Assembly: GCA_964546655.1 (NCBI GenBank)
Contig: CAZJKL010000001.1
Span: forward strand, 2,093 to 66,092
DNA: 64,000 nt
Direction: 5' to 3'
Origin: an uncultured Bacteroidales bacterium
GTDB taxonomy: Bacteria > Bacteroidota > Bacteroidia > Bacteroidales > CAZJKL01
The notes beneath the pieces are model-generated. The model saw only the letters and a list, made by a program, of their open reading frames with translations, was not told the DNA's origin and ran no database searches. The position numbers and the translations under genes are program-made. Numbering within the stretch: position 1 is the stretch's first letter; each line of letters starts with the position of its first letter. This document shows positions 587-25,390 of the stretch, piece after piece.

Positions 587-2595
587 TAAAGATAAATAAT
601 TTCAAATTTTTCACATTCTCCAATATTATCGGAGTTTGCAAAAATAAGATTAGTCTTTTTATCTACAGATAAATATTTACCATTAATTGCTTTAATAGCA
701 TAGTATGTTTTATTAATTTTATATAAATAAAATGTTTCCCAATCGCACATTAAATCTTTATCTACAGTTAACTCATTTTTATTTTCAATATTTGAAGAAA
801 TAAATTTATTTTGAAAAGACAATAATCCCAAAGAATTATTATTAAGAACAACTAATTTGAATAATTCCCATGAAAGAGAATGATCTTTGTCTGCTATTAG
901 GAAAGGAGTTCCTTTCGGATTGTCAAAACTAATACTTATGTATTTACCATTTGCCGATTTAATATTTATAGATTTAATTTCTTTAATATTCTTATTTATG
1001 TCATTAATTTTTTGAATAGAATTTATATCACACTTTGAATAATCACACCATTGCTTTAATGAAGTTATATCCATATTATCAAAAAAGCTCATATATTTTT
1101 CAGGATAATTTCCTGTATATGCATTAACAACTGGTATATTTAAATATTGAGCAGCCAATATAGCAGAAATATTAGTTTCAATTATTTTATCATGAGAATC
1201 TGGTTTTGATAAAATTGGCATGTAGGCTATTGCTTTATATTTATTATTATATTGTTTATTAATATTATTAACAATTAAATTAATTTCATTCTGAGAATCT
1301 TTTTTGTCAAAAATCTTTAATTCATTATTATTTATAATATTCTCATAAATAGCAATAAAAGGAAGAATTAATAATATAAATTGTTTTAATTTATAATTTA
1401 TTTTAAGTTCATTAAATGAAACAACAAATATAAACAAGAAGAATATAACTTGAATATTAATAATTCTATCAATAGAACGCATAGACTTAAATCCAGGTAA
1501 ATAATGTATCAATCTATATAAAGAGAATTCATGGATGTTTAAACAAAAAATAATGTTTAGAAATAAAGCAAGTAACAAGAATTTTAATAATTTGTTTTGC
1601 CTATTTTCTAATTTATTTTGTTTTAATATTAAAGCTATTGAAACAAGAATACCTATCCATGGAAGAATACCTACAAAATGAAAATGAGACCACCAATTTG
1701 GAAAAGCAAATTGGCTGTGTTGAGTTAGAATATACCAGTTTTTTGCTGCTATATGAGTGAAAAAATAAGAAATAGGTCTTGGTATAGAATCAAAAATACT
1801 ATCATAACTTCTGTTTTCTGTGATTTCTATCGCTTTAAAATAAGGTATCATTAAAAATGATAATAGTATTGCACAAAAAATTATAACAAAAGAAATATAA
1901 ATAATATTTTTCTTTTGTTTAAATAATAGAAAAAAGTCCCAGTCTTTATATGTTATAAAATAAGCAACAGATAAAAAGAATATTCCATAAATTAAGAAAA
2001 ATCCTAAATAAATTCCGCAATAAAATTGAAAAACAACACCCAATGAAGCAAATAAAAAATACTTTAATTTTTTATTTGATAAAAATTGCCATGTCCAAAA
2101 TAAAACAAGAGGAGCAATAAATTTTGGGAAAACTTGAACATGCTCAAAATGACCAATATTGTATATTCCAAAAGCAAAAATATATGCAGCGGCAGATGCA
2201 ATAAAAACATTTGAAGATATTTTGTTAAACACCCAAAAGCTAAATATAAAATTTAGTCCAAAAATGCAAATAATCCAAAATTGAAAGGAGGTTTCTCTTT
2301 CATAGCCTATTTCTCTGAATAATGAATAGATGGGCATTGTTCCAAGTAAGTTATCAGAAAAAGCGGTTACATTTTTTAATGGATGCATCATTGGTATATC
2401 CCAGTAATTAGCAATATCTCCCTTTAAATATTTATAGCCGTGTTCTAAAATATAATTATTAAATCTTGCGTCACCCTTATCTCCAATTATTTTCGAAAAA
2501 TCCGTATGGAAAATTTTTATTGGAACCGTATATAATCCAATAATTAACATTAAAATTGGGATTATAAAATATATTTGTTTTAATAGTTTTTTCAT
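586..2595 (-). CDS. GT-C/YfhO-like polytopic membrane glycosyltransferase with C-terminal fascin-like beta-trefoil domain
   Basis: About 11-12 hydrophobic segments; first loop GDKGDARFNNYILEH. The last ~130 aa hold repeated trefoil units (IKSANGKYIS..WELFKL, LLSFQNKFIS..WETFYL, IKAINGKYLS..EKFEI). Confidence 0.65.
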   Translation of the reverse strand: MKKLLKQIYFIIPILMLIIGLYTVPIKIFHTDFSKIIGDKGDARFNNYILEHGYKYLKGDIANYWDIPMMHPLKNVTAFSDNLLGTMPIYSLFREIGYERETSFQFWIICIFGLNFIFSFWVFNKISSNVFIASAAAYIFAFGIYNIGHFEHVQVFPKFIAPLVLFWTWQFLSNKKLKYFLFASLGVVFQFYCGIYLGFFLIYGIFFLSVAYFITYKDWDFFLLFKQKKNIIYISFVIIFCAILLSFLMIPYFKAIEITENRSYDSIFDSIPRPISYFFTHIAAKNWYILTQHSQFAFPNWWSHFHFVGILPWIGILVSIALILKQNKLENRQNKLLKFLLLALFLNIIFCLNIHEFSLYRLIHYLPGFKSMRSIDRIINIQVIFFLFIFVVSFNELKINYKLKQFILLILPFIAIYENIINNNELKIFDKKDSQNEINLIVNNINKQYNNKYKAIAYMPILSKPDSHDKIIETNISAILAAQYLNIPVVNAYTGNYPEKYMSFFDNMDITSLKQWCDYSKCDINSIQKINDINKNIKEIKSINIKSANGKYISISFDNPKGTPFLIADKDHSLSWELFKLVVLNNNSLGLLSFQNKFISSNIENKNELTVDKDLMCDWETFYLYKINKTYYAIKAINGKYLSVDKKTNLIFANSDNIGECEKFEIIYL

Positions 2596-2666
2596 TTTAA
2601 ATTAAAAGTTAATAAACAAAAGTATTAAAAAACATTATAAACATCTACATAAATTATATTTAGAAA

Positions 2667-4232
2667 TTAATAATTATGTTCAATAATTTTAGCCTTCATT
2701 TTATAAACATATTCAGGAATATTTTTATCGTATTTTTTAAAAATAACAAAAGAAATATTTTGTTTTCTTAATTTTTTCAATTCTTCTTCAGAAGGAATAA
2801 AATCATAAACATTTTCGAAATTTGTGAAAAACATTATAGATGGAAATGAAAGTTCTTGTACATTAAACAATATTACATCTTTGTTTTCCACAATTTCGGG
2901 TAATGCTTTTATAAATTGCATTTCGGTAAATCGGAATTTTCTATACCAAGATTTTTCTGGGTATTTAAGGCTATGTTCGACCTCAATTTTATTTGTGTTT
3001 AAGGTAAAATAACAAAACGAAATCAATAATAATAAAGTAAGATAAAACGAAATGTTTTTATTTGTTTTCTTATTAAAAAATAGTTCAAATTCACTAATTA
3101 CATTAGCAAAAGCAATAAAAATAAATACCGAAACAATTAAACCAAACGATTCAAGTTTAGTTTTTGCAATTGTGAAAATAGTATAACTAATAATTATTGA
3201 TAAAAAAATCATGATTTTATGAGATTTTTTATCAAGTTTGAAAAATAAAAATAGTAGTAATATAATTATAATATATGGTGTAATATTGTTTTCAAAATAT
3301 AAAAACTCTAATGCTTTAAAATGGTAATTCCAAGAGCCTTTGTGACCTTCAAGTGTTTCAAAAAAATGGCGGCTATTATAAGCATACTCATATCTGCTTT
3401 CAATTGGAAATTTTCTTAAAATATATAATTGCCAAGGCAGAAAAACTATAATTGCAATAGTCAATGAAACTATAATATGAAAGTAGTTTTTTAATTTTAA
3501 AATATTTTCTTTATTAGTTAATAAAACAATTCCCCAGCCACCAAAAACAATTAATCCGCTTAACCATTTGTTTAACACAGCACAACCTGCAAAAATGCCA
3601 ATAAATATTACATATTTCAATGAATTATTTTTAGTGTATTCGAACCAAGCCCAAAATGAAGCTGAAACGTAAAAAATAAAAGCGATATCATTATGGTCAC
3701 AAATTTTTCCACCTACAATTAAATCTAATAAATAATATGAAAAACAAAACAAAAAGCCAGCATAAAAGCCGGTTTTTTTAGACACAGTAATTGACCCAAT
3801 TCTATAAATGAAAAATACTATTATAGAATGCATTATAATACTTGGCAATCTAACTGCAAAAACATTGGTTCCAAATATTTTTATACTTAATGCAATTTGC
3901 CATAAAAACAAAGGTTGTTTATGAAGCCAAATATGATTTCTATCCCAGGTTTCATAATTGTATTCAAGAATTGGGTTTAAATATAAAGTAGGCTTTAACG
4001 GGTTTTCAATCATATTTTTGGCAACCAAAGCATGAATTTGTTCGTCCCAATAATTTAAAAAAGGATCAAGAGAGGCAAAGAATAAGCCTAATAAAAAGGA
4101 ACCTAATATTAAAATTATAACTGAAAGCTTCGGACTTTTATAATGAAAAGTAAATAGTGCAATAATAATTAATAATATAGCACTATAAAAGAAAATTAAT
4201 TGATCTGTAATAAAAAAATCAGAATCCAACAT
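2667..4232 (-). CDS. ArnT/PMT-family (GT83/GT39-like) membrane glycosyltransferase
   Basis: YWDEQIHALVAKNM, HKQPLFLW, RLPS and NKWL motifs plus many TM helices. The ORF track extends to a TTG at 4256; ATG at 4232 is the more likely start. Confidence 0.8.
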   Translation of the reverse strand: MLDSDFFITDQLIFFYSAILLIIIALFTFHYKSPKLSVIILILGSFLLGLFFASLDPFLNYWDEQIHALVAKNMIENPLKPTLYLNPILEYNYETWDRNHIWLHKQPLFLWQIALSIKIFGTNVFAVRLPSIIMHSIIVFFIYRIGSITVSKKTGFYAGFLFCFSYYLLDLIVGGKICDHNDIAFIFYVSASFWAWFEYTKNNSLKYVIFIGIFAGCAVLNKWLSGLIVFGGWGIVLLTNKENILKLKNYFHIIVSLTIAIIVFLPWQLYILRKFPIESRYEYAYNSRHFFETLEGHKGSWNYHFKALEFLYFENNITPYIIIILLLFLFFKLDKKSHKIMIFLSIIISYTIFTIAKTKLESFGLIVSVFIFIAFANVISEFELFFNKKTNKNISFYLTLLLLISFCYFTLNTNKIEVEHSLKYPEKSWYRKFRFTEMQFIKALPEIVENKDVILFNVQELSFPSIMFFTNFENVYDFIPSEEELKKLRKQNISFVIFKKYDKNIPEYVYKMKAKIIEHNY

Positions 4233-4373: not shown

Positions 4374-5015
4374 ATGTTACAACCATTATTCACAGGTATT
4401 ATTTTAGGTGCGACTCTAAGTTTTCTTATAGGTCCTGCTTTTTTTACTTTGATAGATACTAGTATTAAAAGAGGTTTTTTCTATGGATGGGCTTTTGCTG
4501 TTGGAATTCTTATTAGTGATATAATGTATATTTCAATAATTATGCTAGGCGTTTCGAGCTTACTTGAAAATGTTATGTTTAAAAATATAATGTCAGTCGC
4601 TGGAGGGTTACTGCTTATTGCTTTTAGCATTTATTACTTTACACGTAAAAAAGAAACTAATTTTACTCGAAGAAAAAAGCTTTTAACTCAAAAAGTTCCT
4701 TTGGTAAATTTAATTCTTAAAGGTTTTGTTTTAAATACTTTTAATCCTACTGTTTTATTTTTTTGGATTGGTATTATAAGCTCAGTTTCTATTCAGGTTC
4801 AAGGGGCAAAAAATGGTGTTTATATATTTTTATCTGGTTTGTTTATAACCATGCATGGAATGGATATAATTAAAGCTTATGTTGCTCAAAAAATCAATAA
4901 ATTTTTAACCCCAAATATTATGTATCTTTTTAATATTTTAGTTGGTGTAATTTTATTTTGTTTTGGCGGATATCTTATCTTAAATTATTTAAACAGCGTA
5001 TTACATTTGTTCTAA
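4374..5015 (+). CDS. LysE/RhtB family amino-acid translocator
   Basis: GPAFFTLIDTSIKRGF and GFVLNTFNP motifs, about 6 TM segments. The ORF track starts at TTG 4353; ATG 4374 is in frame. Confidence 0.85.
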   Translation: MLQPLFTGIILGATLSFLIGPAFFTLIDTSIKRGFFYGWAFAVGILISDIMYISIIMLGVSSLLENVMFKNIMSVAGGLLLIAFSIYYFTRKKETNFTRRKKLLTQKVPLVNLILKGFVLNTFNPTVLFFWIGIISSVSIQVQGAKNGVYIFLSGLFITMHGMDIIKAYVAQKINKFLTPNIMYLFNILVGVILFCFGGYLILNYLNSVLHLF

Positions 5016-7445
5016 TCCTTCAACTTCTCCTCCCTGATTATTTGGCTTTTGTTTTTTAAAGTTGTTAATTTTATAGCTAAAAGTAATCATATAAACCTGA
5101 TATTCTCTATTCATTTTTTCAAATGTATAATATGATTTATTTAATATTGTGCGTTCAGAAGTTCTTGTTTTAAATACATCTTGTATATTTAAGGTTAAGC
5201 TTGCTTTTTTCTTAAATACATCTTGTTTAATACCAAAATCAAAATAATAAACTTCTGATTTTTCTCCTTGAATATCAACCGAAGGGCTATTGTAAACTCC
5301 AGTTAACTGGAATTTAGTTGTTTTTGTAATTGTAAAATTTGTCGCTAATTTTGTTTCATAGTTAAAACTATTATCTTTAACATTTTCTCCGGTAATATTT
5401 CCATTTACACTCATATTATATAAATTCCCTGATAAATTAATATTTATCCATTTCTTTGGGTCAATATTAAGCATAAGTTCAAAGCCATACGATTCTTTTT
5501 TGTCAAAATTACCCATTGTAGATACCTTTCTGTTTAGTTCATCAATTGTGATTATACGAACAATTGAATTAGTAGTAAGGTTATAATAAGTTCCTAAAGA
5601 ATAAAACATTTTTTTATAATTTTTTTGATAGTTTATTTCAAAAGCATTAATATCCTCTGGTTTAAGATATGGATTACCTTTGCTTAAATTATATAAATCA
5701 GAAAAATTTGGATAAGGATTTAATAACCAAGGTTTTGGCCTATTAACTCTTTTGCTATAACTTAATTGAATATTTCTATCTTTTGTTAGTTTCTTATTAA
5801 TATGCACAGTTGGATAGTAATTACTAAGATTTACCAGATATTTTTCATTTGTGGTTTTCTGTTCAATAATTCTATCTGTTATTTCATATCTTAATCCAAG
5901 CTGATATTCAAATTCTTTAAATTTGCTCGAAAAAGTAGCGTAAGTAGCGTAAATAGATTGATTAAAGAAAAGTATATTTGAGTAATTAGTATTATTTATC
6001 CATAAAACAGAATTTAAATCAAAGTCTTCATAAATAAAATCAATATCACCATTAGGACCGGTTGTATATTGAAATCCTGATTCAAATTTGCCAATCTTTA
6101 AAGGATTTGTATAATCAATTTTTAACTGATAATTTTGACGATCTGCATTTGTTTGTGAGCGATTTCTTGAACCATCGCTAGTTTTATTAAATAAGTTGTT
6201 TGTATAATCTAATACTGAATTTTCTTTTGTTAAGCCTGTTAATGTTGAAACATTTGTGAAAAATAAAACTTTATGGTCTTCTTTTTTAAATTTTTTTTGA
6301 TATGATAAATCAAATGAATATATAGACATATGCATACTATATCTGTTGTCTGACAATGAATAAATGCTATTTAAAACATCGTCATTATAACTATCATAGC
6401 TATTGTATGAAGTTAATTTGTTTCTTTTCATTAAAGCCTCTCTATAATTAAAAGCAAATGTAATCGAGTTGTTTGGGTTAATTGCATAGTCAAAGCCTCC
6501 ATTTATACTTTTACTTTGTCTTAAAAATCTCATGTCTCCATCTTCAACCAAATTATTAATAGTATCAGAATTATAAATTTCATTTATTGTTTTAGAATTC
6601 CCCAGGTTCCATTTATTATTATAACTCGCTCCAATAAAGTAATTAAACTTCTTCTTTCTTAAATTAAATAAAAAATCGGCATTATATTTATCATTTTTAC
6701 CAGCCGATAAATTAACTATACCATTAAAGCCATCGCGTTTTTCTTTTTTCAAAATTATATTAATAATACCTGCTGTTCCTTCAGGGTCATATTTAGCAGA
6801 TGGATTAGTTATTAACTCAATTTTTTCGATAGAACTTGCCGGATATTGATTAAGAATATCGTTCCCATCCATTATACTTGGTTTTCCATCAATTAATACA
6901 GTATAGTTTGTATTTCCCCTTATAGCAACATTCCCTTCAATATCAACAGAAACAGATGGAACATTTTTTAATACATCAATTGCAGTTCCTCCTGTAGCAT
7001 TAAGGCTTTGATCAACATTTATTACTTTTTTGTCAATTTTGTATTCTATATAATCTTTTTGTGCAACAACTTGCACTTCAGAAATATTTTGTGTGCTTTG
7101 TTCTAAAAAAATATCTTGTACCTTAATCTTCTTAATTTTGTCGTTAATGGTTATATTGTTAATTGTTTTTTTATTATATCCAATAAAATTAGCAATCAGA
7201 TAGTAATTGCCATCTTTTATATTAGCTAAAACATAATTTCCGTTATCATCAGTAACATTTCCTGTAACCAGCAATGAATCAGTTGCTTTGTATAATGTAA
7301 CATTTGCGTATGAAATTGGTTTTTTTGTGTGCGAATCGTAAATATTTCCTGAAATATTAGCTTTTATTTGTTTTGCTGTTTCATTTTGGGAATATAAGTT
7401 AATTACAGAAATTAACAGGATAGTTAAAGTATATATAAATTTCAT
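5001..7445 (-). CDS. TonB-dependent receptor (carboxypeptidase-regulatory-like N-domain, plug, beta-barrel)
   Basis: Signal peptide LYS|QNE; ISYANVTL..FIGY N-domain; plug DVLKNVPSV and IELITNPSAKYDPEG; aromatic-rich barrel strands. The 3' end overlaps the convergent LysE gene by 15 nt. Confidence 0.9.
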   Translation of the reverse strand: MKFIYTLTILLISVINLYSQNETAKQIKANISGNIYDSHTKKPISYANVTLYKATDSLLVTGNVTDDNGNYVLANIKDGNYYLIANFIGYNKKTINNITINDKIKKIKVQDIFLEQSTQNISEVQVVAQKDYIEYKIDKKVINVDQSLNATGGTAIDVLKNVPSVSVDIEGNVAIRGNTNYTVLIDGKPSIMDGNDILNQYPASSIEKIELITNPSAKYDPEGTAGIINIILKKEKRDGFNGIVNLSAGKNDKYNADFLFNLRKKKFNYFIGASYNNKWNLGNSKTINEIYNSDTINNLVEDGDMRFLRQSKSINGGFDYAINPNNSITFAFNYREALMKRNKLTSYNSYDSYNDDVLNSIYSLSDNRYSMHMSIYSFDLSYQKKFKKEDHKVLFFTNVSTLTGLTKENSVLDYTNNLFNKTSDGSRNRSQTNADRQNYQLKIDYTNPLKIGKFESGFQYTTGPNGDIDFIYEDFDLNSVLWINNTNYSNILFFNQSIYATYATFSSKFKEFEYQLGLRYEITDRIIEQKTTNEKYLVNLSNYYPTVHINKKLTKDRNIQLSYSKRVNRPKPWLLNPYPNFSDLYNLSKGNPYLKPEDINAFEINYQKNYKKMFYSLGTYYNLTTNSIVRIITIDELNRKVSTMGNFDKKESYGFELMLNIDPKKWININLSGNLYNMSVNGNITGENVKDNSFNYETKLATNFTITKTTKFQLTGVYNSPSVDIQGEKSEVYYFDFGIKQDVFKKKASLTLNIQDVFKTRTSERTILNKSYYTFEKMNREYQVYMITFSYKINNFKKQKPNNQGGEVEGLEQM

Positions 7446-16285: not shown

Positions 16286-18934
16286 TTGATATTAATTAAA
16301 TACATAAAATTCGTTTTTTGCAGAATATTTTTATTTCTGCTTGTTTTGTGTCTTAATTTTAAGGCTTATTCAATGCCTAATTATTTAGTTGCTTTTGCCC
16401 CAGATTCTGTGCTTTTAACTGATACAATAAAGGTTGATTCTGTTCTAAAAACTGATAATAAAATAATTGAAAAAGATACAAGCAAAATTCTTTCTGATGA
16501 TGCCATTGAAACAAAAATCACATATATAGCAAAAGATTCGATCAGATTTTTGATTGGTGAGAAGAAAATGTATCTTTTTGGTAATGCAGAAGTTAAGTAT
16601 GAAGATATTACTTTAAAATCTGATTATATCGAAATTAATATGGATTCGCGTGTTGTTTTAGCAAAAGGCACCTCAGATTCTCTTGGTAAAGTTATTGGAA
16701 AACCTGTTTTTTTGCAAAACGAACAAACATTTAAGGCAAGTATTATCGAGTATAATATGGATACCAAAAAAGGTAAAATATATGATATTATTACAAAAGA
16801 AGGTGATGGGGTTATTCATGGCGAAGATGTTAAAAAACATCCTAACAATGAAGTTCATATTTGTGGAGGTAAATATACAACTTGCGATTTAGACCACCCT
16901 CATTTTTATATTAAAGCTGAAAAAATTAAAGTTATTCCCGACGATAAAATTGTTACTGGTCCAGCTTATCTTGTTGTTGAAGATGTTCCTTTGCCTTTGG
17001 TTTTGCCTTTTGGAATTTTTCCTAACAAAAAAGGTGCAAAGTCTGGGGTTCTTATACCTTCTTTTGATGAGTCGGCGAATAGAGGATTTTTTCTTAAAGA
17101 TTTAGGCTATTTTATTAATGTTAGCGATAAAGTTAATACTTCTGTTTTAGGTGATATTTATTCTAATGGAAGTTGGGGACTTAAAACTTTAACTAATTAT
17201 AAAACTTTGTATAAATATAATGGAAGTTTAAATGTTAGTTATTCTCGATTATATGATGGTTTACAAGGTTTGCCCGACACACCTAAAAGCACCGATTTCT
17301 TTATTAGATGGACTCACAGTCAAGATGCTAAAGCTCGCCCTAATAGCAGATTTTCGGCAAATGTTAATGCCGGGACAGGAAGTTATCATACAAATAACCC
17401 TTCTGCATCTAGTGATTTCCTTTCTAATACTTTTAGTTCATCGGTTTCTTATCAAAAAACTTTTGCTGGCACGCCTTTTAATATGTCGGTTAATTTAAAC
17501 CATTCACAAAACTCTAAAACTAAAATAGTTAGCTTAGGTGTTCCTGAAATAACTTTTAATATGAATCGAATTTTTCCTTTCGAAAGAAAAAGCAGAATAG
17601 GATCGCCAAAAGTTTGGGAAAAAATTAGTGTTAGTTATAATTTTAATATTAAAAATGAGTTAAAAAAAGCAGACTCTCTTATTTTTTCGCCATCAACTAC
17701 TATTAAAGATTTGAATAATGGAATTAAGCACAGTATTCCAATTAGCACAAATATGAAATTGTTAAGTTACTTTAATTTAACGCCATCTTTTGTTTATACC
17801 GAAAGGTGGTATCCGAGAAGTGTAAAAAAAGAATGGGACGAAACTTCGAATTCGGTTATAGTTAAAGATGTTTTTGAGTTTTCGAGAGCTTATGATTATA
17901 ATTTTAATACTAATTTAACTACAAAACTTTATGGTTTAATTGCCACTAAGAAAAATTTCCCTTTAAAAGCATTAAGACATGTTTTAACTCCTTCTGTAGG
18001 ATATACATATAAACCTGATTTTAGTAAACAAAAATGGGGTTTTTACGATTCGGTGCAAGTTGATACTTTAGGAAATAAAGTTTTATATTCTAAATTTGAT
18101 GGCGGAACTAATTATTGGTCAGGTATATACGGTAGTCCATCGTCTTATGAGCAAAGTATGTTAAATTTTTCTATTAGTAATAATCTCGAAATTAAAATCA
18201 GGAACAGAAAAGATACTATTACAGGAATAAAAAAAGTTGTTTTAATTGAAGATTTAAGATTTAGCTCTTCTTATAATTTTGCGGCTGATTCATTGAAATG
18301 GTCAAAAATAAATATATCAGGTAGAACTAAATTGTTTAATCGTTTATATATTAATTACACAGCACGACTCGATCCTTATGTTATGTATCAAGATAAGATT
18401 AACAGCAATTACTATAATATAAATATTTTCGAATATAATAAATTTGGAAGATTAGCAAGAATGATGGATTCTAAATGGAGCTTTTCATTGCAATTAGCTT
18501 TAGATCCTAAAATGTTTGAGAAGAAAGATAATAATGTTTCGAAGAACGAAGAAAAAAGCGAATACTTTAAAATTCCTTGGAATGTTAATGTAAATTACTC
18601 ATTAAACTACGGGGAGGTTTATTATTATAATAATTTAGGTAAAGTTGATTCTATTGCTAAGGATACTACTCATACTATTGATTTTAACGGAGGTTTTGAT
18701 ATATCTCCTAATTGGAGAATTGGATACAGAACGGGTTATGATATTGTTAATAATGATATAACCTATACTGAACTTAACTTGTATCGTAGTTTGCATTGCT
18801 GGGAATTAGAATTTAAATGGATTCCTTACGGTATGCAAAAGAAATATGAAGTTAATATTCACGTAAAATCACCAATTTTAGAAGGATTAAAAGTAGAAAG
18901 GAAAAAAGATTGGCGTGATGCTTATCAGCGGTAA
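16286..18934 (+). CDS. lptD: Putative LPS assembly protein LptD (Bacteroidota type)
   Basis: YTTCDLDHPHFY, PLVLPFGIFP and LYRSLHCWE motifs; divergent from the amidase-MCE pair; TAGTTTTG -7 motif at 16247-16254. Confidence 0.88.
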   Translation: MILIKYIKFVFCRIFLFLLVLCLNFKAYSMPNYLVAFAPDSVLLTDTIKVDSVLKTDNKIIEKDTSKILSDDAIETKITYIAKDSIRFLIGEKKMYLFGNAEVKYEDITLKSDYIEINMDSRVVLAKGTSDSLGKVIGKPVFLQNEQTFKASIIEYNMDTKKGKIYDIITKEGDGVIHGEDVKKHPNNEVHICGGKYTTCDLDHPHFYIKAEKIKVIPDDKIVTGPAYLVVEDVPLPLVLPFGIFPNKKGAKSGVLIPSFDESANRGFFLKDLGYFINVSDKVNTSVLGDIYSNGSWGLKTLTNYKTLYKYNGSLNVSYSRLYDGLQGLPDTPKSTDFFIRWTHSQDAKARPNSRFSANVNAGTGSYHTNNPSASSDFLSNTFSSSVSYQKTFAGTPFNMSVNLNHSQNSKTKIVSLGVPEITFNMNRIFPFERKSRIGSPKVWEKISVSYNFNIKNELKKADSLIFSPSTTIKDLNNGIKHSIPISTNMKLLSYFNLTPSFVYTERWYPRSVKKEWDETSNSVIVKDVFEFSRAYDYNFNTNLTTKLYGLIATKKNFPLKALRHVLTPSVGYTYKPDFSKQKWGFYDSVQVDTLGNKVLYSKFDGGTNYWSGIYGSPSSYEQSMLNFSISNNLEIKIRNRKDTITGIKKVVLIEDLRFSSSYNFAADSLKWSKINISGRTKLFNRLYINYTARLDPYVMYQDKINSNYYNINIFEYNKFGRLARMMDSKWSFSLQLALDPKMFEKKDNNVSKNEEKSEYFKIPWNVNVNYSLNYGEVYYYNNLGKVDSIAKDTTHTIDFNGGFDISPNWRIGYRTGYDIVNNDITYTELNLYRSLHCWELEFKWIPYGMQKKYEVNIHVKSPILEGLKVERKKDWRDAYQR

Positions 18935-19107: not shown

Positions 19108-20304
19108 ATGAAAGAGTTCCTTACTCAAAAAATGATTAAGAAAAATATCTTAATAACATTTATCTTAATTTTGTTTGCAATTTCTAGTAATGCTCAATGG
19201 ACATTTACATACAATGTAACTTATTCATGTAGCAGTGGGTACATTCCTTATCCTCCATTTCCTAATGTTGTAATGTACACAAAAGAAGCTTGTGAATACA
19301 ATAGATCTGGTGTTTTATCAAGTAGTGGGAATGATGTAGGGCTTTGGGAAACATGTATTCAAACAATAACTGCCACTCCTTGTGTTAATTCTGGAGGTGG
19401 TGGAAGCACAGGTGAAATAGGAGATTATATAAATCCGAATAAAGCTGCTGGACAAATTAATCCAGGTGATGCTTCACTATATGGTATTTATGAAGGTAAA
19501 CCTTTTTCAACTACTCATCAAAGTTCGGCTCTTGGTGATTTAGCTGCAGAGTATCAAGAATTGACAAAAAGATTGGGAATAAAATTTGTTGATGGACAGG
19601 CGGTTAATTCACCAGTAGCTTTAACAGGCGACCCAACTTATGATGCATTTTTATTAAATCAGTATTTGCAATTTAATCCTAATTTTAATAATAATACCAA
19701 TAAACCTTTATCTGTTAATCCCAATGATGTTAAAACAAATTCAGGGGATAATACCGCAGGAACTATAAACCCAAATGATTTAAAAGCCTCTGAACCAGCT
19801 AAGCCTTCGCTTAAAGACTCTTATGTACCACCATTAGTGCCAAGCGAAATTAAAGAAAAAACGAAACACGAAAACATTGAATTAGCAAGAGAATCTCTTG
19901 TTTCTTTAGCGGCTGTTGCTCCAAAACCTTTTAGTTATCTTGGTATAGCAATAGTTGATATTTATGCAGCTAATGCTACTCAACTTGTAGATTGTTTAGA
20001 TGGTAATTGCCAACCAACTCTTAATGTTTATGTAAATATGGCATCACAAGTTGCTACAGATGTTGCTGTTCAGGGTGTTGGTGATTTAGGAAGTATGGCT
20101 GCAGGTAAATTGTTTGCAAATTTAGCTTTGAAAAACGGAAATATGCTAAAAGGTGCTGATATGGGGTTTAAAGAATTCCGCAAGGGTGTTGCTGAAGAAG
20201 TAGTACCACAAATTGGGGAAGGTCATTTTGCTGTAGTTAGTGGAGTTACCGACTTAGCAAAAAAATGGGTTAATGCTTCTGGGGTAGAAACAATTTATGA
20301 TTAA
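19108..20304 (+). CDS. Exported hypothetical protein (Cys-rich N-domain, Asn/Pro linker, Ala/Gly-rich helical C-domain)
   Basis: 398-aa ORF; signal peptide ISSNA|QWT; no recognisable family and no T9SS sorting domain. Confidence 0.75.
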   Translation: MKEFLTQKMIKKNILITFILILFAISSNAQWTFTYNVTYSCSSGYIPYPPFPNVVMYTKEACEYNRSGVLSSSGNDVGLWETCIQTITATPCVNSGGGGSTGEIGDYINPNKAAGQINPGDASLYGIYEGKPFSTTHQSSALGDLAAEYQELTKRLGIKFVDGQAVNSPVALTGDPTYDAFLLNQYLQFNPNFNNNTNKPLSVNPNDVKTNSGDNTAGTINPNDLKASEPAKPSLKDSYVPPLVPSEIKEKTKHENIELARESLVSLAAVAPKPFSYLGIAIVDIYAANATQLVDCLDGNCQPTLNVYVNMASQVATDVAVQGVGDLGSMAAGKLFANLALKNGNMLKGADMGFKEFRKGVAEEVVPQIGEGHFAVVSGVTDLAKKWVNASGVETIYD

Positions 20305-20343
20305 TACCAGAAAAGCCAATCTAATTGTAAAAAAATAATTCAC

Positions 20344-21435
20344 ATGAAAAATATTTTTAAATATATATTATTACTGTCAATAACATTAGTTCTTATTTCT
20401 ACTTTTAGTATTAATGTAAAAGGATTATCGGTAAACAAAGCAGGTGATTCTATTCGCTTCGAAATATTATTACATAAAAAAATGCTTAATGACTCGAAGA
20501 TTGATGTTAAATTTATTGAATCAATAGAAATCACTTCTTCTCAATTATTAATGCTTTCTTCTTCAAATCAATTTTATTTATTAGGTTTGGGTGGCATAGC
20601 TCCTGTAAGTCAAAAAGAAAATGATACAATAACTTCATTTGCTTATACTTCAGATGGTTTACTAATGATTGTTCGAAATAATGAACTTTGTTATATTGAT
20701 ACCTTAGGAAAATTAGCTAAACTTTATACATTACCTAGTCATAATATGAAAATTTCGGCAGGTAAAAAAGTTATGTATTTATTCGACAGTAGTAAAAATA
20801 AAAAGAAGTATATTGTTTATTCTTTAGCTCATGGCGGAAGATATAATGAAATACTTGTAACTTCAACACCAATAAATGCTGTTGCCGAAACTAAAAATCA
20901 ACTTTTGTTTTCAACTGGTAGTGCATTATATAGCTATAATTTAAACGATAAAAAAACAAAAGCATTAGTTAATGTTCCAAATAACTATGAAATAAAGTCA
21001 ATAGCAGTTGATACTTTATCAGGTCGAATATATTTTTCAACAAACAATGCTGTTTATGCATTAAAAGATTCACTTGCAGTAGCAATAACAGATAAATTTA
21101 CAGGCTCACTTAAATATTATAATAATAGTATTATGATAATTAATTCGGAAAAACAATTTATAGTTAGAATAATTGGCTTAGAAGATAAAATAAAATCGGT
21201 AAATACGGCAAAACCACAAGAAATTAGTAAAACAGTAGAAGTACTTACAAATGAGAGTGTTATAAAAATGGTAAATGCTAAACTTTCTGATGAAATGATT
21301 ATTAATATAATTAACAAATCGGAAGTAAACTTTAATACAGATGTAAATTCGATGATTAATTTATCTAATCAGCAAGTTTCATCGGCGGTTATTATGGCAA
21401 TGAAAAATGCAATGAAAGCAAAAAACAATAAATAA
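20344..21435 (+). CDS. Exported beta-propeller protein with C-terminal 55-aa helical domain
   Basis: Hydrophobic N-terminus; blade-like repeats (ITSFAYTSDGLLMIV, INAVAETKNQLLFST, IKSIAVDTLSGRIYFST). Confidence 0.7.
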   Translation: MKNIFKYILLLSITLVLISTFSINVKGLSVNKAGDSIRFEILLHKKMLNDSKIDVKFIESIEITSSQLLMLSSSNQFYLLGLGGIAPVSQKENDTITSFAYTSDGLLMIVRNNELCYIDTLGKLAKLYTLPSHNMKISAGKKVMYLFDSSKNKKKYIVYSLAHGGRYNEILVTSTPINAVAETKNQLLFSTGSALYSYNLNDKKTKALVNVPNNYEIKSIAVDTLSGRIYFSTNNAVYALKDSLAVAITDKFTGSLKYYNNSIMIINSEKQFIVRIIGLEDKIKSVNTAKPQEISKTVEVLTNESVIKMVNAKLSDEMIINIINKSEVNFNTDVNSMINLSNQQVSSAVIMAMKNAMKAKNNK

Positions 21436-21466
21436 AAAGTGTAAGAAACTACATAAAAGTAAACAA

Positions 21467-22768
21467 ATGAAAAAAAGTATATTAATCCTAGCTCTTGTAT
21501 TTGTAGCATTAACAAGTAGCATACAAGCACAAACGTTAACAGTTTTAACAAACAATACTATTGTAAAAATGGTAAAGGCTAGCCTTTCAGATGAAATTAT
21601 AATTGATGAAATTAATAATGCAAATGTTAATTTTAATCTTAGTCCAGATTCGGTTAGTTATTTAGCTAATGAGAAGGTATCAGAGCAAGTTATACAAGTA
21701 ATGAAGGTGGTTAATGAAAAACAAAATCCTGTAGCTGAAATTACTGCTCAAGAAGAACCTGTTGATTATAATTCGACCCAAACAACAGAACCAACTCAAG
21801 AAATTCAGACAGAAACACAAATTACAACCAATCAAGTTGCAACTTCTGAAACAACTGAACCTTTAGTTAGTGAAAACAAAATTCAACAAGCAAACGAATC
21901 AACAACAAATTCAATAGAAGCTGTTAGTTATACCATTCCAATTGAAGGATTGATAAATTATTTTAATAATGAATACAATAATATGACAAACCTAATTAAA
22001 GGTTATGACAGCAGAATTAGAGATTCGATAAATAGAATAAATAAAATAAAACTAACCCTTACTCAATACGAAAAAGATTTAACAAACACTAAAAATGCTG
22101 ATACAAAAGCTTTTACAAACGATATTTTAATTATTAAGAAAAGTGTTGTTTCTTACCGTGAAAAATATAAGCAAGCAAAAGGCAAAATGTTTACAGATGG
22201 TATGAACATCGTAAAAGAAATAAAAGAAAAAAGTGAAGCAAAAAATAGCGAAATAGGTAGTAAGTTTAGTGAAACATGTAAAAATATAAAAGACTACAAA
22301 TCTGATCCTTCTAAGGGCAGAGAGGCAAAAACAATAAGTATTACAAAGCAAAAATTTAATGAAGAAATAATAAATTATGTAACTTCATTAAAAGAGATAC
22401 CTTGTTTTTACCAAAATGAAATTATAGTATTGCAAAATTTAATTACTCAATACAGCATTAAAGCTGAAGAAATTATTAAAAAAGACGCCGAACTTGCAAA
22501 ACAACTAGAGCCTTTAGATAAACAAATGAATGATTTAAAACAAGATTCGAAAAAGAATAAAAAAGAGATTTCTGAATTAAAAAAACAATGTTCGAAAATT
22601 GAAAAAGAAAGAAAACAACTTGAAGAACAAATGGGCAGTGATAGTAAACAGTTGTCAGAAAGCCTAAAACAATCAAGTAAAGAAATTCAAAGCACTTTAA
22701 TTGCAAGATATATTGATATTATTGAAACTATAAATTTTTCATATTTAGACAAATTTAATTTAGACTAA
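21467..22768 (+). CDS. Exported protein: 55-aa helical domain, T/E/Q-rich linker, two tandem long alpha-helical repeats
   Basis: Signal peptide SIQA|QTL; heptad-rich Lys/Glu C-terminal two thirds. Confidence 0.75.
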   Translation: MKKSILILALVFVALTSSIQAQTLTVLTNNTIVKMVKASLSDEIIIDEINNANVNFNLSPDSVSYLANEKVSEQVIQVMKVVNEKQNPVAEITAQEEPVDYNSTQTTEPTQEIQTETQITTNQVATSETTEPLVSENKIQQANESTTNSIEAVSYTIPIEGLINYFNNEYNNMTNLIKGYDSRIRDSINRINKIKLTLTQYEKDLTNTKNADTKAFTNDILIIKKSVVSYREKYKQAKGKMFTDGMNIVKEIKEKSEAKNSEIGSKFSETCKNIKDYKSDPSKGREAKTISITKQKFNEEIINYVTSLKEIPCFYQNEIIVLQNLITQYSIKAEEIIKKDAELAKQLEPLDKQMNDLKQDSKKNKKEISELKKQCSKIEKERKQLEEQMGSDSKQLSESLKQSSKEIQSTLIARYIDIIETINFSYLDKFNLD

Positions 22769-22772
22769 CTTT

Positions 22773-24593
22773 ATGTTTAATAAAGAATATATAAAACAAA
22801 ATATTTTGAAAATACTTAAACCCTGTTTTTTCATGGGGCTATATTGTGTTTTCTTTTTTCCTTTATTTTTAAAGGCACAAGATAAAATTCACAAAACCGA
22901 CAATACAATTATAGATGTTAAAGTTTCTGAAGTTAGCGAAACTGAAATTAAGTATAAAAAATTTAGTAATTTTAATGGACCTACATATACTATAAATAAG
23001 TTAGATGTAAATATGATTGTTTATGAAAATGGAGAGCAAGAAATATACAATCAAAAATTGGTTCAACAAAAGCAAAAGATAGATCCACAGATTTATCTAG
23101 AAGAATATATGGGGGTTAAATTAGAAAAATCTACGAAAAACAATGGCGTTAAAATTATTGATAAAGTTAAAGGACATAGGTTAAAAAAAGGACTTTCTCC
23201 AGGTGAAGTTGTTATTGGTATTTTTACTGCATATGTTGGTTTTGGAGTTATGGCTATTGCCGGAGAATTTTCATTAAGAAATGCAGTTATAACAGCATTT
23301 AAAATTGGTGATGAAGATGATGCTAAATGGACTAAAGTAAATAATATTTCAGACCTTACAAAAGCATTTATAAAAGCGTCTCAGGATAAAAAAAGTAATA
23401 GTGTAAATATCGTAAATTTTAAAATTAAAAAAGGTATTGGAAAATCAATTGGATGGGTAAATCTTAAAGATTTTGATGCTAGTTTAATTGAAACATCTTT
23501 AGATAAAGCCAGAAATTTACTTCTTTCTGGGAATATGAATTTGGCCATTGCTACATATTCTAAATGTATAGAAGAAGACTCTGTAAACTCTGCTTTACTT
23601 GCCGAAGATGCTTATGCTCTTGCTTTAAATGGAATATATGACATTGCATTGTTGCGATTGGATCAAGCTTGGGGCCTTAAACAAAATAAGCCTGAAGTAA
23701 ATTACTATACAGCTCAAGTGCTTTCTTTAATGGGATATGATGATATAACAAATTCGCTTTGGAAGTCTTCCGAAAAATATACTGCTCCTGAGTGGATAGC
23801 TTTAAAAGCTCCTTTATTATTGAAAAAATATAAGAATAAAAACACTAATTCTTCTATAAAAACTAAAGAAGAACTTATTGCAAATTTTAAACGTGCTAAT
23901 GAATTAGCAGCACAACAATTTTATTTTCAGTCAATTGTGTTGTTTCAAAATATAATAAAAATGTGTCCCGATGAATATTTCCCATACATTGGTTATAGCC
24001 TTTCAATGGAAAAAATTGGTGCTTATGACCAATCGGCACAGGCTATAGAAAAAGCTATAAAATTAATTGAAAACAATCCTGAAGCAAGTAAAAACAAACA
24101 GGTGTTTGAGCAACGTCTTAATTATATTAAACAACAATCAAATCTGTTCCCTCTTGGCACTACTTTACCTGGGTTGTCTCAGTTAACTAATTCTGAAAGC
24201 TTTCGCCCTCAAATGATGGCTTATTCAGGAGTTAGTTTAGCTAAATCACAAACCTTAATTAATGCACGATTGGGTTATTTCTTATCAAAATCAAACAATT
24301 TATCTTTTGATTTAGGAGTAAATAAAATAGGTGAAAATTCTTATTCTAATGTTGGATTTGCTATATATTCAAGGCATAAGAGCATGGTTTCGGGTGGTGG
24401 ATTAATGATGTTGAGTGGCGGAGGTGTTACTTCATTATATGTGAAGTTGTCAGTTGGTATCAGTGCTTTAAATAAAAAGAAAACCTCAAGTTTTGACTTT
24501 TTTATTGATGTAAATAAAGGTTTGAAAAAAAACTCACTCACATCATTTAGTATCTCGATTGGTAAAAGTATTTATTTTGGAAAAAGGAAATAA
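22773..24593 (+). CDS. Multidomain envelope protein: Bacteroidota N-domain, PDZ-like segment, TPRs, C-terminal beta-barrel
   Basis: LKA|QDKIHKTDNTIIDVKVSEV..IKYKK..GPTY N-domain; MGVKLE..GVKII..GLSPGEVV PDZ-like segment; TPR helices; alternating-hydrophobic strands ending ISIGKSIYF. Confidence 0.65.
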   Translation: MFNKEYIKQNILKILKPCFFMGLYCVFFFPLFLKAQDKIHKTDNTIIDVKVSEVSETEIKYKKFSNFNGPTYTINKLDVNMIVYENGEQEIYNQKLVQQKQKIDPQIYLEEYMGVKLEKSTKNNGVKIIDKVKGHRLKKGLSPGEVVIGIFTAYVGFGVMAIAGEFSLRNAVITAFKIGDEDDAKWTKVNNISDLTKAFIKASQDKKSNSVNIVNFKIKKGIGKSIGWVNLKDFDASLIETSLDKARNLLLSGNMNLAIATYSKCIEEDSVNSALLAEDAYALALNGIYDIALLRLDQAWGLKQNKPEVNYYTAQVLSLMGYDDITNSLWKSSEKYTAPEWIALKAPLLLKKYKNKNTNSSIKTKEELIANFKRANELAAQQFYFQSIVLFQNIIKMCPDEYFPYIGYSLSMEKIGAYDQSAQAIEKAIKLIENNPEASKNKQVFEQRLNYIKQQSNLFPLGTTLPGLSQLTNSESFRPQMMAYSGVSLAKSQTLINARLGYFLSKSNNLSFDLGVNKIGENSYSNVGFAIYSRHKSMVSGGGLMMLSGGGVTSLYVKLSVGISALNKKKTSSFDFFIDVNKGLKKNSLTSFSISIGKSIYFGKRK

Positions 24594-24595
24594 AG

Positions 24596-25390
24596 ATGAA
24601 ACATATATATATAATATTAACCATATTTTTATTTAGCTTTTCTTTTGTTTCTGCACAAGATGCTAAAAAACTAGAATCGTTTAAAATAACTACATTACAA
24701 AAATATAATATGTATTTTAATAATGCAGAATTAAACGAAAGTGGCAAATTAAAATTATCAGCTTTAGATAAATATTCGCAACAAAACACAGAAGAAAAAA
24801 AAGCTATAATTCAAAAAATAAATTTAGAATGGCAAGATTCAATAGTTATTGTAAGTTATGGAACAAAAAGAGAATTGTGGGGTTGGAATTCTTCGACTAA
24901 AACTACACAACTACTTGATATATTTGATTTTGGTAAACAACCTTCATCTTTAATACCTGCTTTAGATGCGAACAAAACAGCTCTTCATCCTTGGTTTTTT
25001 TATGTTGGAGGATTTATGACTGGAGACAACCAGAAAAATATGAGTTTTTCTTTTAATACTCGTCTGGGATTTTTCTTATTAAAAAATAGATGGGATTTAG
25101 CGACTACTTTTTCTGCGGGAACAATTGAAGTGGGAGATACAGCTTCGAGCAATTTTACATCATTTGGGTTAATGAGCAGAGTTTATTTTCCGATAAAAAA
25201 TGTTAGTGTTTTCCCTAATATTGGAGGCGATATAACTTTGGGCGATGATGGTGCAAGTGCAGGATTGTTAGTTGGTGCTAGATGGCATTTTAATATGGGA
25301 AGTCTTGATTTTGGAGTAAGGTTCGGAAATGAAGTAAGAGCTATGCTTGGTTATACTTTTTTCCCTACAAGAAAGTCTAAAAAAAGATAG
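24596..25390 (+). CDS. Outer membrane beta-barrel protein, unknown function
   Basis: Signal peptide VSA|QDA; about 8 amphipathic strands from PWFFYVGG to MLGYTFF. Confidence 0.7.
   Translation: MKHIYIILTIFLFSFSFVSAQDAKKLESFKITTLQKYNMYFNNAELNESGKLKLSALDKYSQQNTEEKKAIIQKINLEWQDSIVIVSYGTKRELWGWNSSTKTTQLLDIFDFGKQPSSLIPALDANKTALHPWFFYVGGFMTGDNQKNMSFSFNTRLGFFLLKNRWDLATTFSAGTIEVGDTASSNFTSFGLMSRVYFPIKNVSVFPNIGGDITLGDDGASAGLLVGARWHFNMGSLDFGVRFGNEVRAMLGYTFFPTRKSKKR

Follow-up and report, generated by a model that had tools for sequence, protein, structure and literature searches.

Two neighbouring genes on a 64,000-nucleotide stretch of an uncultured Bacteroidales bacterium (GenBank assembly GCA_964546655.1, contig CAZJKL010000001.1, positions 2,093 to 66,092 of the forward strand; this whole stretch is referred to as the window) encode proteins which share a single segment of about 56 residues. 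It lies at the C-terminus of the first protein, the product of open reading frame (ORF) A, and directly behind the signal peptide of the second, the product of ORF B. What is this segment, and what could it contribute to two proteins that otherwise have nothing recognizable in common? Our analysis shows that it is genuine and represents an old, widespread domain family which the libraries searched do not describe. In respect to its function, we tentatively favor, at somewhat less than an even chance, a periplasmic tether to the peptidoglycan layer or one of its components that would co-localize A and B.

A domain at the boundary of two genes

The features of both genes, which are separated by 31 nucleotides on the + strand, are as follows (scores refer to the hidden Markov model, HMM, of the family, strands and disorder to the AlphaFold2, AF2, model of A and its predicted local distance difference test score, pLDDT).

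20344..21435, + strand: ORF A, 363 aa; hydrophobic helix at the N-terminus, then six-bladed beta-propeller, linker, module, and basic tail
20455..21174, + strand: propeller body of A, aa 38-277, from DSSP strands in the AF2 model
21199..21237, + strand: disordered linker of A, aa 286-298, pLDDT below 50
21238..21408, + strand: module copy A, A aa 299-355; C-terminal four-helix domain of the propeller protein, 86.8 bits
21467..22768, + strand: ORF B, 433 aa; module behind the signal peptide, then Q/T/E-rich linker and long, putatively helical/coiled-coil region
21539..21709, + strand: module copy B, B aa 25-81, directly after the signal peptide, 79.8 bits
21710..21916, + strand: low-complexity, Q/T/E/P-rich linker of B, ~aa 82-150, read from the translation

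An initial annotation of the window had placed a 55-residue peptide in each protein (21241-21405 and 21542-21706) and aligned them without gaps at 29 of 55 identities; both peptides are present at these positions and a recount reproduced the figure exactly. BLASTP of the whole proteins aligned A aa 295-354 with B aa 21-80 (30/60 identities, E 4e-13) and returned no other significant similarity outside this segment. On the DNA level, the two copies are 67% identical (111/165), with 32 of 55 third positions being identical. They are the only module copies of the source genome (2.96 Mb, 127 contigs).

Based on an alignment of 20 module copies from four phyla, the isolated module was modeled by AF2 with a pLDDT of 97 and a predicted template modeling score of 0.80. 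The 56-residue module is predicted to be an autonomous four-helix domain, composed of short helices at positions 5-13, 18-27, 36-44, and 49-57 and two single-residue beta-bridges at positions 3 and 30; in the model of full-length A, the helices span residues 303-311, 316-325, 334-342, and 347-362. The two halves of the module, T3-I24 and S34-L55, are homologous to each other (94% probability, E 1.4e-7; hhalign, 245 instances). Since they align, the module represents a helix-turn-helix unit of ~26 aa (N-cap S/T, helix, A-G turn, and S-capped helix) repeated twice by internal duplication, and model and half alignment agree on a pseudo-two-fold symmetric fold. Across the family, the conserved core comprises L2, V7, I8, M/L10, I20, I24, F31, L38, L41, V46, V50, I51, and M54, accompanied by helix-capping residues, N4 (93%; 93-100% across analyses), and D32 (67%). 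We refer to the 56-aa profile as the LTN module, defined by an LTN start, two [AG]-[GK]-hydrophobic-S turns, F/Y at position 31, and an ...AM end. Both window copies match this HMM, which was built from the four phyla, and retain L2, T3, N4, I24, F31, L41, and M54.

The body of A had been read as a propeller in the initial annotation, which the structural data bear out. Its AF2 model (11 orthologues, mean pLDDT 82.4) contains about 24 strands between aa 38 and 277, and Foldseek returned six-bladed propellers with a probability of 1.0 (8djf, 3ott, Pizza6; TMt up to 0.77). Strand count and structural matches together place the body in the propeller fold; in addition, a profile of A has a weak match to the BT4673 propeller sensor domain. 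The linker behind it varies in length and sequence among the orthologues, within which the module is more conserved than the propeller body. Residues 1-25 of A (20344-20420) form one long helix (H2-25) without an obvious A-x-A cleavage site, followed in the orthologues by a conserved G-[LF]-[PS]-x-K-x-DS motif. Instead of a signal peptide, this N-terminus may represent a signal anchor that is not cleaved, which would position A on the inner membrane.

In B, the signal peptide appears by eye to be cleaved between …SSIQA and QTLTVLTN. The downstream ~280 aa read as a putative helical rod or coiled coil, judged from coiled-coil family matches at aa 289-407 of a family library scan, all of them sub-threshold. 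All B homologues analyzed (P0209-P0214 as well as the B genes of the related loci) begin with the module. The length of their linker is very variable, and in P0210 it hosts a SPOR domain. As the linker of A is disordered and that of B is of low complexity, both modules are terminal and flexibly tethered.

A tree of 77 module instances, including A and B copies from seven genomes, united all A and all B copies in one clade (99/98) with the A copies being monophyletic (99/74). One further protein within this clade, P0057, belongs to its B side and seems to be a B-type protein carrying two modules. A and B copies also have derived states in common, namely Lys and Asn in place of the two turn glycines, D17, and K55. 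Their common clade dates the duplication before the divergence of the seven genomes, in agreement with the old duplication postulated initially, and together with the shared derived states it indicates that a single duplication took place in the operons' common ancestor. Given that the two copies lie on either side of the boundary between the genes, we infer as the simplest route that the 5' part of B was duplicated locally, in tandem, onto the 3' end of A; one ancestral copy at the 5' end of B would thereby have been added to the adjacent end of A. The two groups show specific differences at positions 10, 22/23, 35, 39, 48, and 52, A being more hydrophobic (N-I/L at 22/23, V/I at 35, I at 39, M/L at 52) and B more acidic or polar (D/E-E, polar, K/N, and Q/E at the same four sites).

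A large family of exported proteins

No Pfam-A family (2025) reached its gathering cut-off over the module, neither in the window copies nor in nine host proteins of other phyla, 150 representatives, or the consensus. NCBIfam (release 20) contained no relevant match for the window proteins and ten strong family members, profile searches of the PDB by sequence with the module gave nothing below E 0.01, and Foldseek of the module model reached best E values of 5.3 (PDB) and 1.5 (BFVD). A literature search for a description of such a domain also yielded nothing relevant. Several candidates were evaluated individually and rejected. DUF7626 (PF24625) scored at best 21.6 against a cut-off of 27, covering a helix-turn-helix half of ~20 residues; T7-like_Y65 (PF10911) reached 23 against 25 and SAM_DprA (PF18255) a sub-threshold score, each covering half of the module. 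A likeness to ankyrin repeats was suggested by a few Foldseek matches with TM ~0.5, none of them significant. Membership in SPOR (PF05036) was dismissed, as the window module has no profile match and is predicted to be all-helical, and so was membership in SLH, LysM, PG_binding_1, or OmpA, given the lack of any Pfam match, PDB sequence match, or fold match.

The initial annotation stated that similar modules exist in unannotated envelope proteins of several phyla, and both the genome scan and the HMM search confirmed this. Scanning one genome per species by pattern and tblastn located the module in four phyla, i.e., Bacteroidota (Bacteroidales and other metagenome-assembled genomes), Nitrospirota, Verrucomicrobiota (Opitutales), and many Acidobacteriota. 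It occurs in 7 of 201 sampled Bacteroidota genomes and in 30 of 121 Acidobacteriota genomes, 19 of the latter 30 having a single match. Three genomes of other phyla (G202, G204, G205) contain exactly one module copy each. When 1.84 billion representatives of clusters at 50% identity were searched exhaustively with the HMM, a large family of unannotated envelope proteins emerged. At E<=1e-3 it counts 13,870 proteins, at E<=1e-10 it still counts 4,320, and 26 of them reach E<=1e-30. All names given to module proteins in the source databases are "hypothetical protein".

Architectures were evaluated in the best 150 of these 13,870 proteins, a set biased toward multi-copy proteins. Two copies are found in 127 of them, some proteins reaching up to six, with a median linker of 17 aa between copies. 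Residue 30 is the median start of the first copy, which in 119 proteins begins between residues 15 and 45, following a hydrophobic leader. In 36 proteins the last module ends within 15 residues of the C-terminus, 42 proteins are not longer than 200 aa, and some are composed of modules alone. The passenger domains C-terminal of the module are very diverse. Co-occurring Pfam families (DUF2846, CsgG, PEGA, Gly-zipper, OmpA, TonB_C, LpoB, and FlgT_M) are of periplasmic or outer-membrane types. Around 15 module genes outside the Bacteroidota, the neighborhoods lack a recurrent partner.

Two individual loci deserve mention in this context. In L013 (Terriglobia, 4939-6174), a C-terminal module follows a weak LpoB-like match and TPR repeats, and C-terminal placement is therefore not unique to ORF A. 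In L045 (Acidobacteriota, G303:C129:7000-13000, ~2058-4035), two adjacent co-directional genes each encode a signal peptide and a module ahead of unrelated bodies; we rejected it as a second tail-to-head case, both modules being N-terminal (head-head).

Post-signal-peptide position, arrays, module-only proteins, single-copy genomes, and unrelated passengers together give the family the behavior of an anchoring module of the avidity type, and not that of a device specialized in hetero-docking. In kind, the module is another small extracytoplasmic targeting module.

The tail of A and the presence of B

Searching with the propeller part alone yielded 42 homologues of A; together with the orthologues of the loci, 49 bodies could be classified by their C-terminus.

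Module only: 32/49
SPOR only (P0167, P0170, P0184): 3/49
Module followed by SPOR: 5/49
Nothing: 9/49

All SPOR calls exceed the Pfam gathering score, with 22-35 bits in the A and B homologues. According to well-supported branches of the propeller tree, the SPOR-only state has at least three origins nested among module-bearing forms; P0167, for example, has the module-bearing P0169 as its sister (99/82). In the same tree, the tail-less state has at least two origins. On the B side, P0210 combines module, SPOR, and coiled coil. SPOR domains bind peptidoglycan glycan strands denuded of peptides (PMC6895207). The swaps in A and the architecture of P0210 hence mean that evolution has repeatedly put a proven wall-binding domain into or next to the module slot, in both proteins. 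This points to envelope binding by the module, with the cell wall as its probable place and perhaps its ligand.

A module and gene B were further compared across the related loci.

A with module, B present: the window, L004-L009, L038, L039, L043, L047, L048 (12 loci)
A with module, B missing: L044 (1 locus)
A without module, B missing: L036 (SPOR only), L037, L040, L041, L042 (5 loci)
A without module, B present: none (0 loci)

This pattern suggests that the A module and B are coupled, with the reservation that the loci are not phylogenetically independent. It forms the core of the main rival to a tether, in which the C-terminal module of A would pair with the N-terminal module of B, joining the propeller to the rod, and modules elsewhere would form homo-oligomers or intramolecular pairs. 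Such homotypic docking we consider possible, if rather unlikely. The two copies are sister paralogues lying side by side in 12 loci, and B was found exclusively together with an A module (12/12). All five loci in which A lacks the module also lack B, among them L036 and L041, which keep the rest of the operon in the order 398-like gene, A (with SPOR tail or no tail), 606-like gene, and 264-like gene. A pseudo-two-fold symmetric fold would suit pairing, and surface-like positions that are conserved within the A and B groups and differ between them would fit an asymmetric interface.

On the other side, L044 retains the A module, here on a Thr-rich linker of ~100 aa, although B is missing. The A module directly adjoins gene B on the DNA, so that one deletion could remove both; their joint loss therefore need not reflect function. 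For these two reasons we rejected strict co-occurrence as a proof of docking, and the non-independence of the counts weakens it further. Outside this operon, genomes with a single copy, secreted proteins composed of modules alone, and arrays reaching six copies fit ligand avidity better than pairing, and in L045 adjacent genes of another phylum both carry the module N-terminally on unrelated bodies. Single-module-protein genomes, module-only proteins, and L044 thus set limits on a purely A-B docking function.

A proposed tether, possible docking, and the five-gene operon

The proposed tether assumes that the module, being mounted on a flexible linker, would keep the protein that carries it at a shared constituent of the cell envelope, for which the peptidoglycan layer is the most probable candidate. 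The beta-propeller of A and the coiled-coil protein B would thereby be held at the same layer, beside the products of the last two genes of the operon. The data establish the domain and its family, the predicted fold, the linkers, one duplication, conserved synteny, and the SPOR interchange. That the module binds anything, and what it binds, we infer from the anchoring-type behavior of the family and the SPOR interchange, and it is mainly because of these two lines of evidence that a tether is favored; the autonomous fold and the flexible linkers of both copies count in its favor as well.

Several observations weigh against it. The presence of module and SPOR in one protein may mean that the two are not redundant. 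No peptidoglycan hydrolase was found among the co-occurring families of the best 150 proteins, and the module has no sequence or fold similarity to LysM, SPOR, PG_binding_1, OmpA, or SLH. Classical wall-binding modules are common in phage lysins; a search of 2.9 million viral contigs, 50,697 phage genomes, and 72,556 plasmids returned no LTN module, and the idea that it would occur in lysins found no support. Conservation is almost entirely restricted to core and capping positions, leaving N4 and D32 as the sole candidate functional polar residues, and no conserved polar or aromatic surface is present on the module. Finally, A and B copies differ systematically at the surface-like positions 22/23, 35, 39, 48, and 52, which is unexpected for the same ligand bound in the same mode. 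That the module is missing from phage lysins and hydrolases, shows no such surface, and has diverged superficially between A and B keeps docking close behind. The two models are not mutually exclusive. The initial proposal of a docking or oligomerization module, or alternatively an envelope-binding one, is partly supported, in so far as the module is discrete, old, maintained as a pair, and part of an envelope family; both options are still candidates.

A further candidate explanation involves the surrounding genes. A and B belong to a five-gene operon (19108-25390) encoding the 398-aa protein, A, B, the 606-aa protein, and the 264-aa protein, which is syntenic in every related locus examined.

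19108..20304, + strand: gene 1, 398-aa exported protein; ORF without Pfam or NCBIfam match
22773..24593, + strand: gene 4, 606 aa; small N-terminal beta-type domain, TPR-like region (weak TPR matches), and conserved C-terminal part
22869..23048, + strand: N-terminal ~60-aa domain of the 606-aa protein, aa 33-92, from similarity to P0009 and P0022
24596..25390, + strand: gene 5, 264-aa exported protein; ORF without family or PDB match

Homologues of gene 1 lie upstream of A in L004-L009, L036, L039, L043, L044, and L048. Gene 4 orthologues follow B, or A where B is missing, in all operon loci, and gene 5 orthologues come last in L004, L007-L009, L036, L038, L039, L041, L043, L044, L047, and L048. 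A scan of the operon for sigma-70 promoters and terminators showed no difference from shuffled sequences. Immediately upstream of the operon, an 882-aa ORF (16286-18934, +, listed with a TTG start) has weak NCBIfam matches to LptD and LptA (25.9 bits against a cut-off of 944) and may encode an outer-membrane protein that resembles LptD but has diverged from it.

The N-terminal domain of the 606-aa protein (aa 33-92, containing …QDKIHKTDNTIIDVKVSEVSETEIKYKKF…VYENGEQEIY, no Pfam family) is 52% identical to P0009 aa 17-76 and 34% identical to P0022, both of which consist of this type of domain followed by module arrays. Its fusion to six and five modules, respectively, would be compatible with the A and B modules docking on this domain or on the TPR part of the 606-aa protein. 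Among the operon loci, the domain is moreover restricted to module-bearing ones (the window, L006, L038, L043, L044, and L048) and absent from the module-less L036 and L041. Nevertheless, we regard such a partner as improbable: six module-bearing operons (L004, L007, L008, L009, L039, and L047) lack the domain, most of the family belongs to phyla and genomes without this operon, and a fusion indicates co-use, not binding. Least likely of all is a passive cap or spacer without a specific partner, protecting the new N-terminus after cleavage or setting a distance, for which conservation confined essentially to core and helix-capping residues, the preferred position immediately after the signal peptide, and the lack of a conserved gene neighborhood outside the operon would speak, and which is difficult to reconcile with C-terminal modules (A, L013), long arrays, a module more conserved than the propeller body in A orthologues, its exchange for the bona fide binding domain SPOR, and the 93-100% invariance of N4.

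Among known systems, the module would be closest in function to SPOR, SLH, and the propeller-plus-OmpA_C arrangement of PorE, and in its logic to dockerins, while being a member of none. SPOR (PF05036) is the denuded-glycan binder of FtsN, DamX, DedD, and RlpA. Like the module, it is a small autonomous periplasmic unit on flexible linkers at protein termini, occupying the same slot or the position beside the module in A orthologues and one B homologue. SPOR, however, adopts an RNP-like beta-alpha-beta fold, whereas the module is predicted to be all-helical, has no sequence match to it, and its binding to peptidoglycan is putative. SLH (PF00395) is the cell-wall anchoring module of S-layer and outer-membrane proteins. 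The likeness is one of architecture, with helical units of ~55 aa in one to three or more tandem copies, typically placed behind the signal peptide or C-terminally, and diverse passengers anchored to the wall; in contrast, no module protein tested has a Pfam SLH match and the module is devoid of the TRAE motif.

Dockerins (type I) are Ca-binding F-hand pairs of cellulosomal enzymes, which bind a separate cohesin and thereby assemble complexes. With ~70 aa, a terminal position, an internal two-fold duplication, and linkers on many secreted proteins they resemble the module, for which, however, no Ca-binding loops, no Pfam match, and no cohesin-like partner were found. PorE of the type IX secretion system of Bacteroidota combines TPR, a WD40 propeller, a CRD, and a peptidoglycan-binding OmpA_C-like domain and ties an outer-membrane-associated machine to the wall via its terminal module (PMC7192894, PMC12773672). 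The same phylum and the combination of propeller, TPR, and terminal module make it a functional analogy for a tether. In contrast to the single lipoprotein PorE, the parts are here distributed over several genes, have no sequence relationship to it, and end in a different terminal module.

Taken as a whole, the broadest version of our proposal is a new large periplasmic domain family (>=13,870 clusters at 50% identity) with a fold unlike solved structures, serving as a new class of envelope anchor interchangeable with SPOR, whose A and B copies also pair and couple propeller and rod into an uncharacterized outer-membrane-associated machine; in this full combination we consider it unlikely. The module nevertheless marks thousands of unannotated exported proteins in little-studied phyla (Acidobacteriota, Nitrospirota, Verrucomicrobiota, and some Bacteroidota), for which the defined domain, with its confident fold model and testable role, would provide a first handle. 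Its natural exchange with SPOR within one orthologous family offers an exceptionally clear starting point for finding its function. Should binding be confirmed, the few envelope-anchoring domains would gain a new structural class, and the conserved five-gene operon would become easier to interpret.

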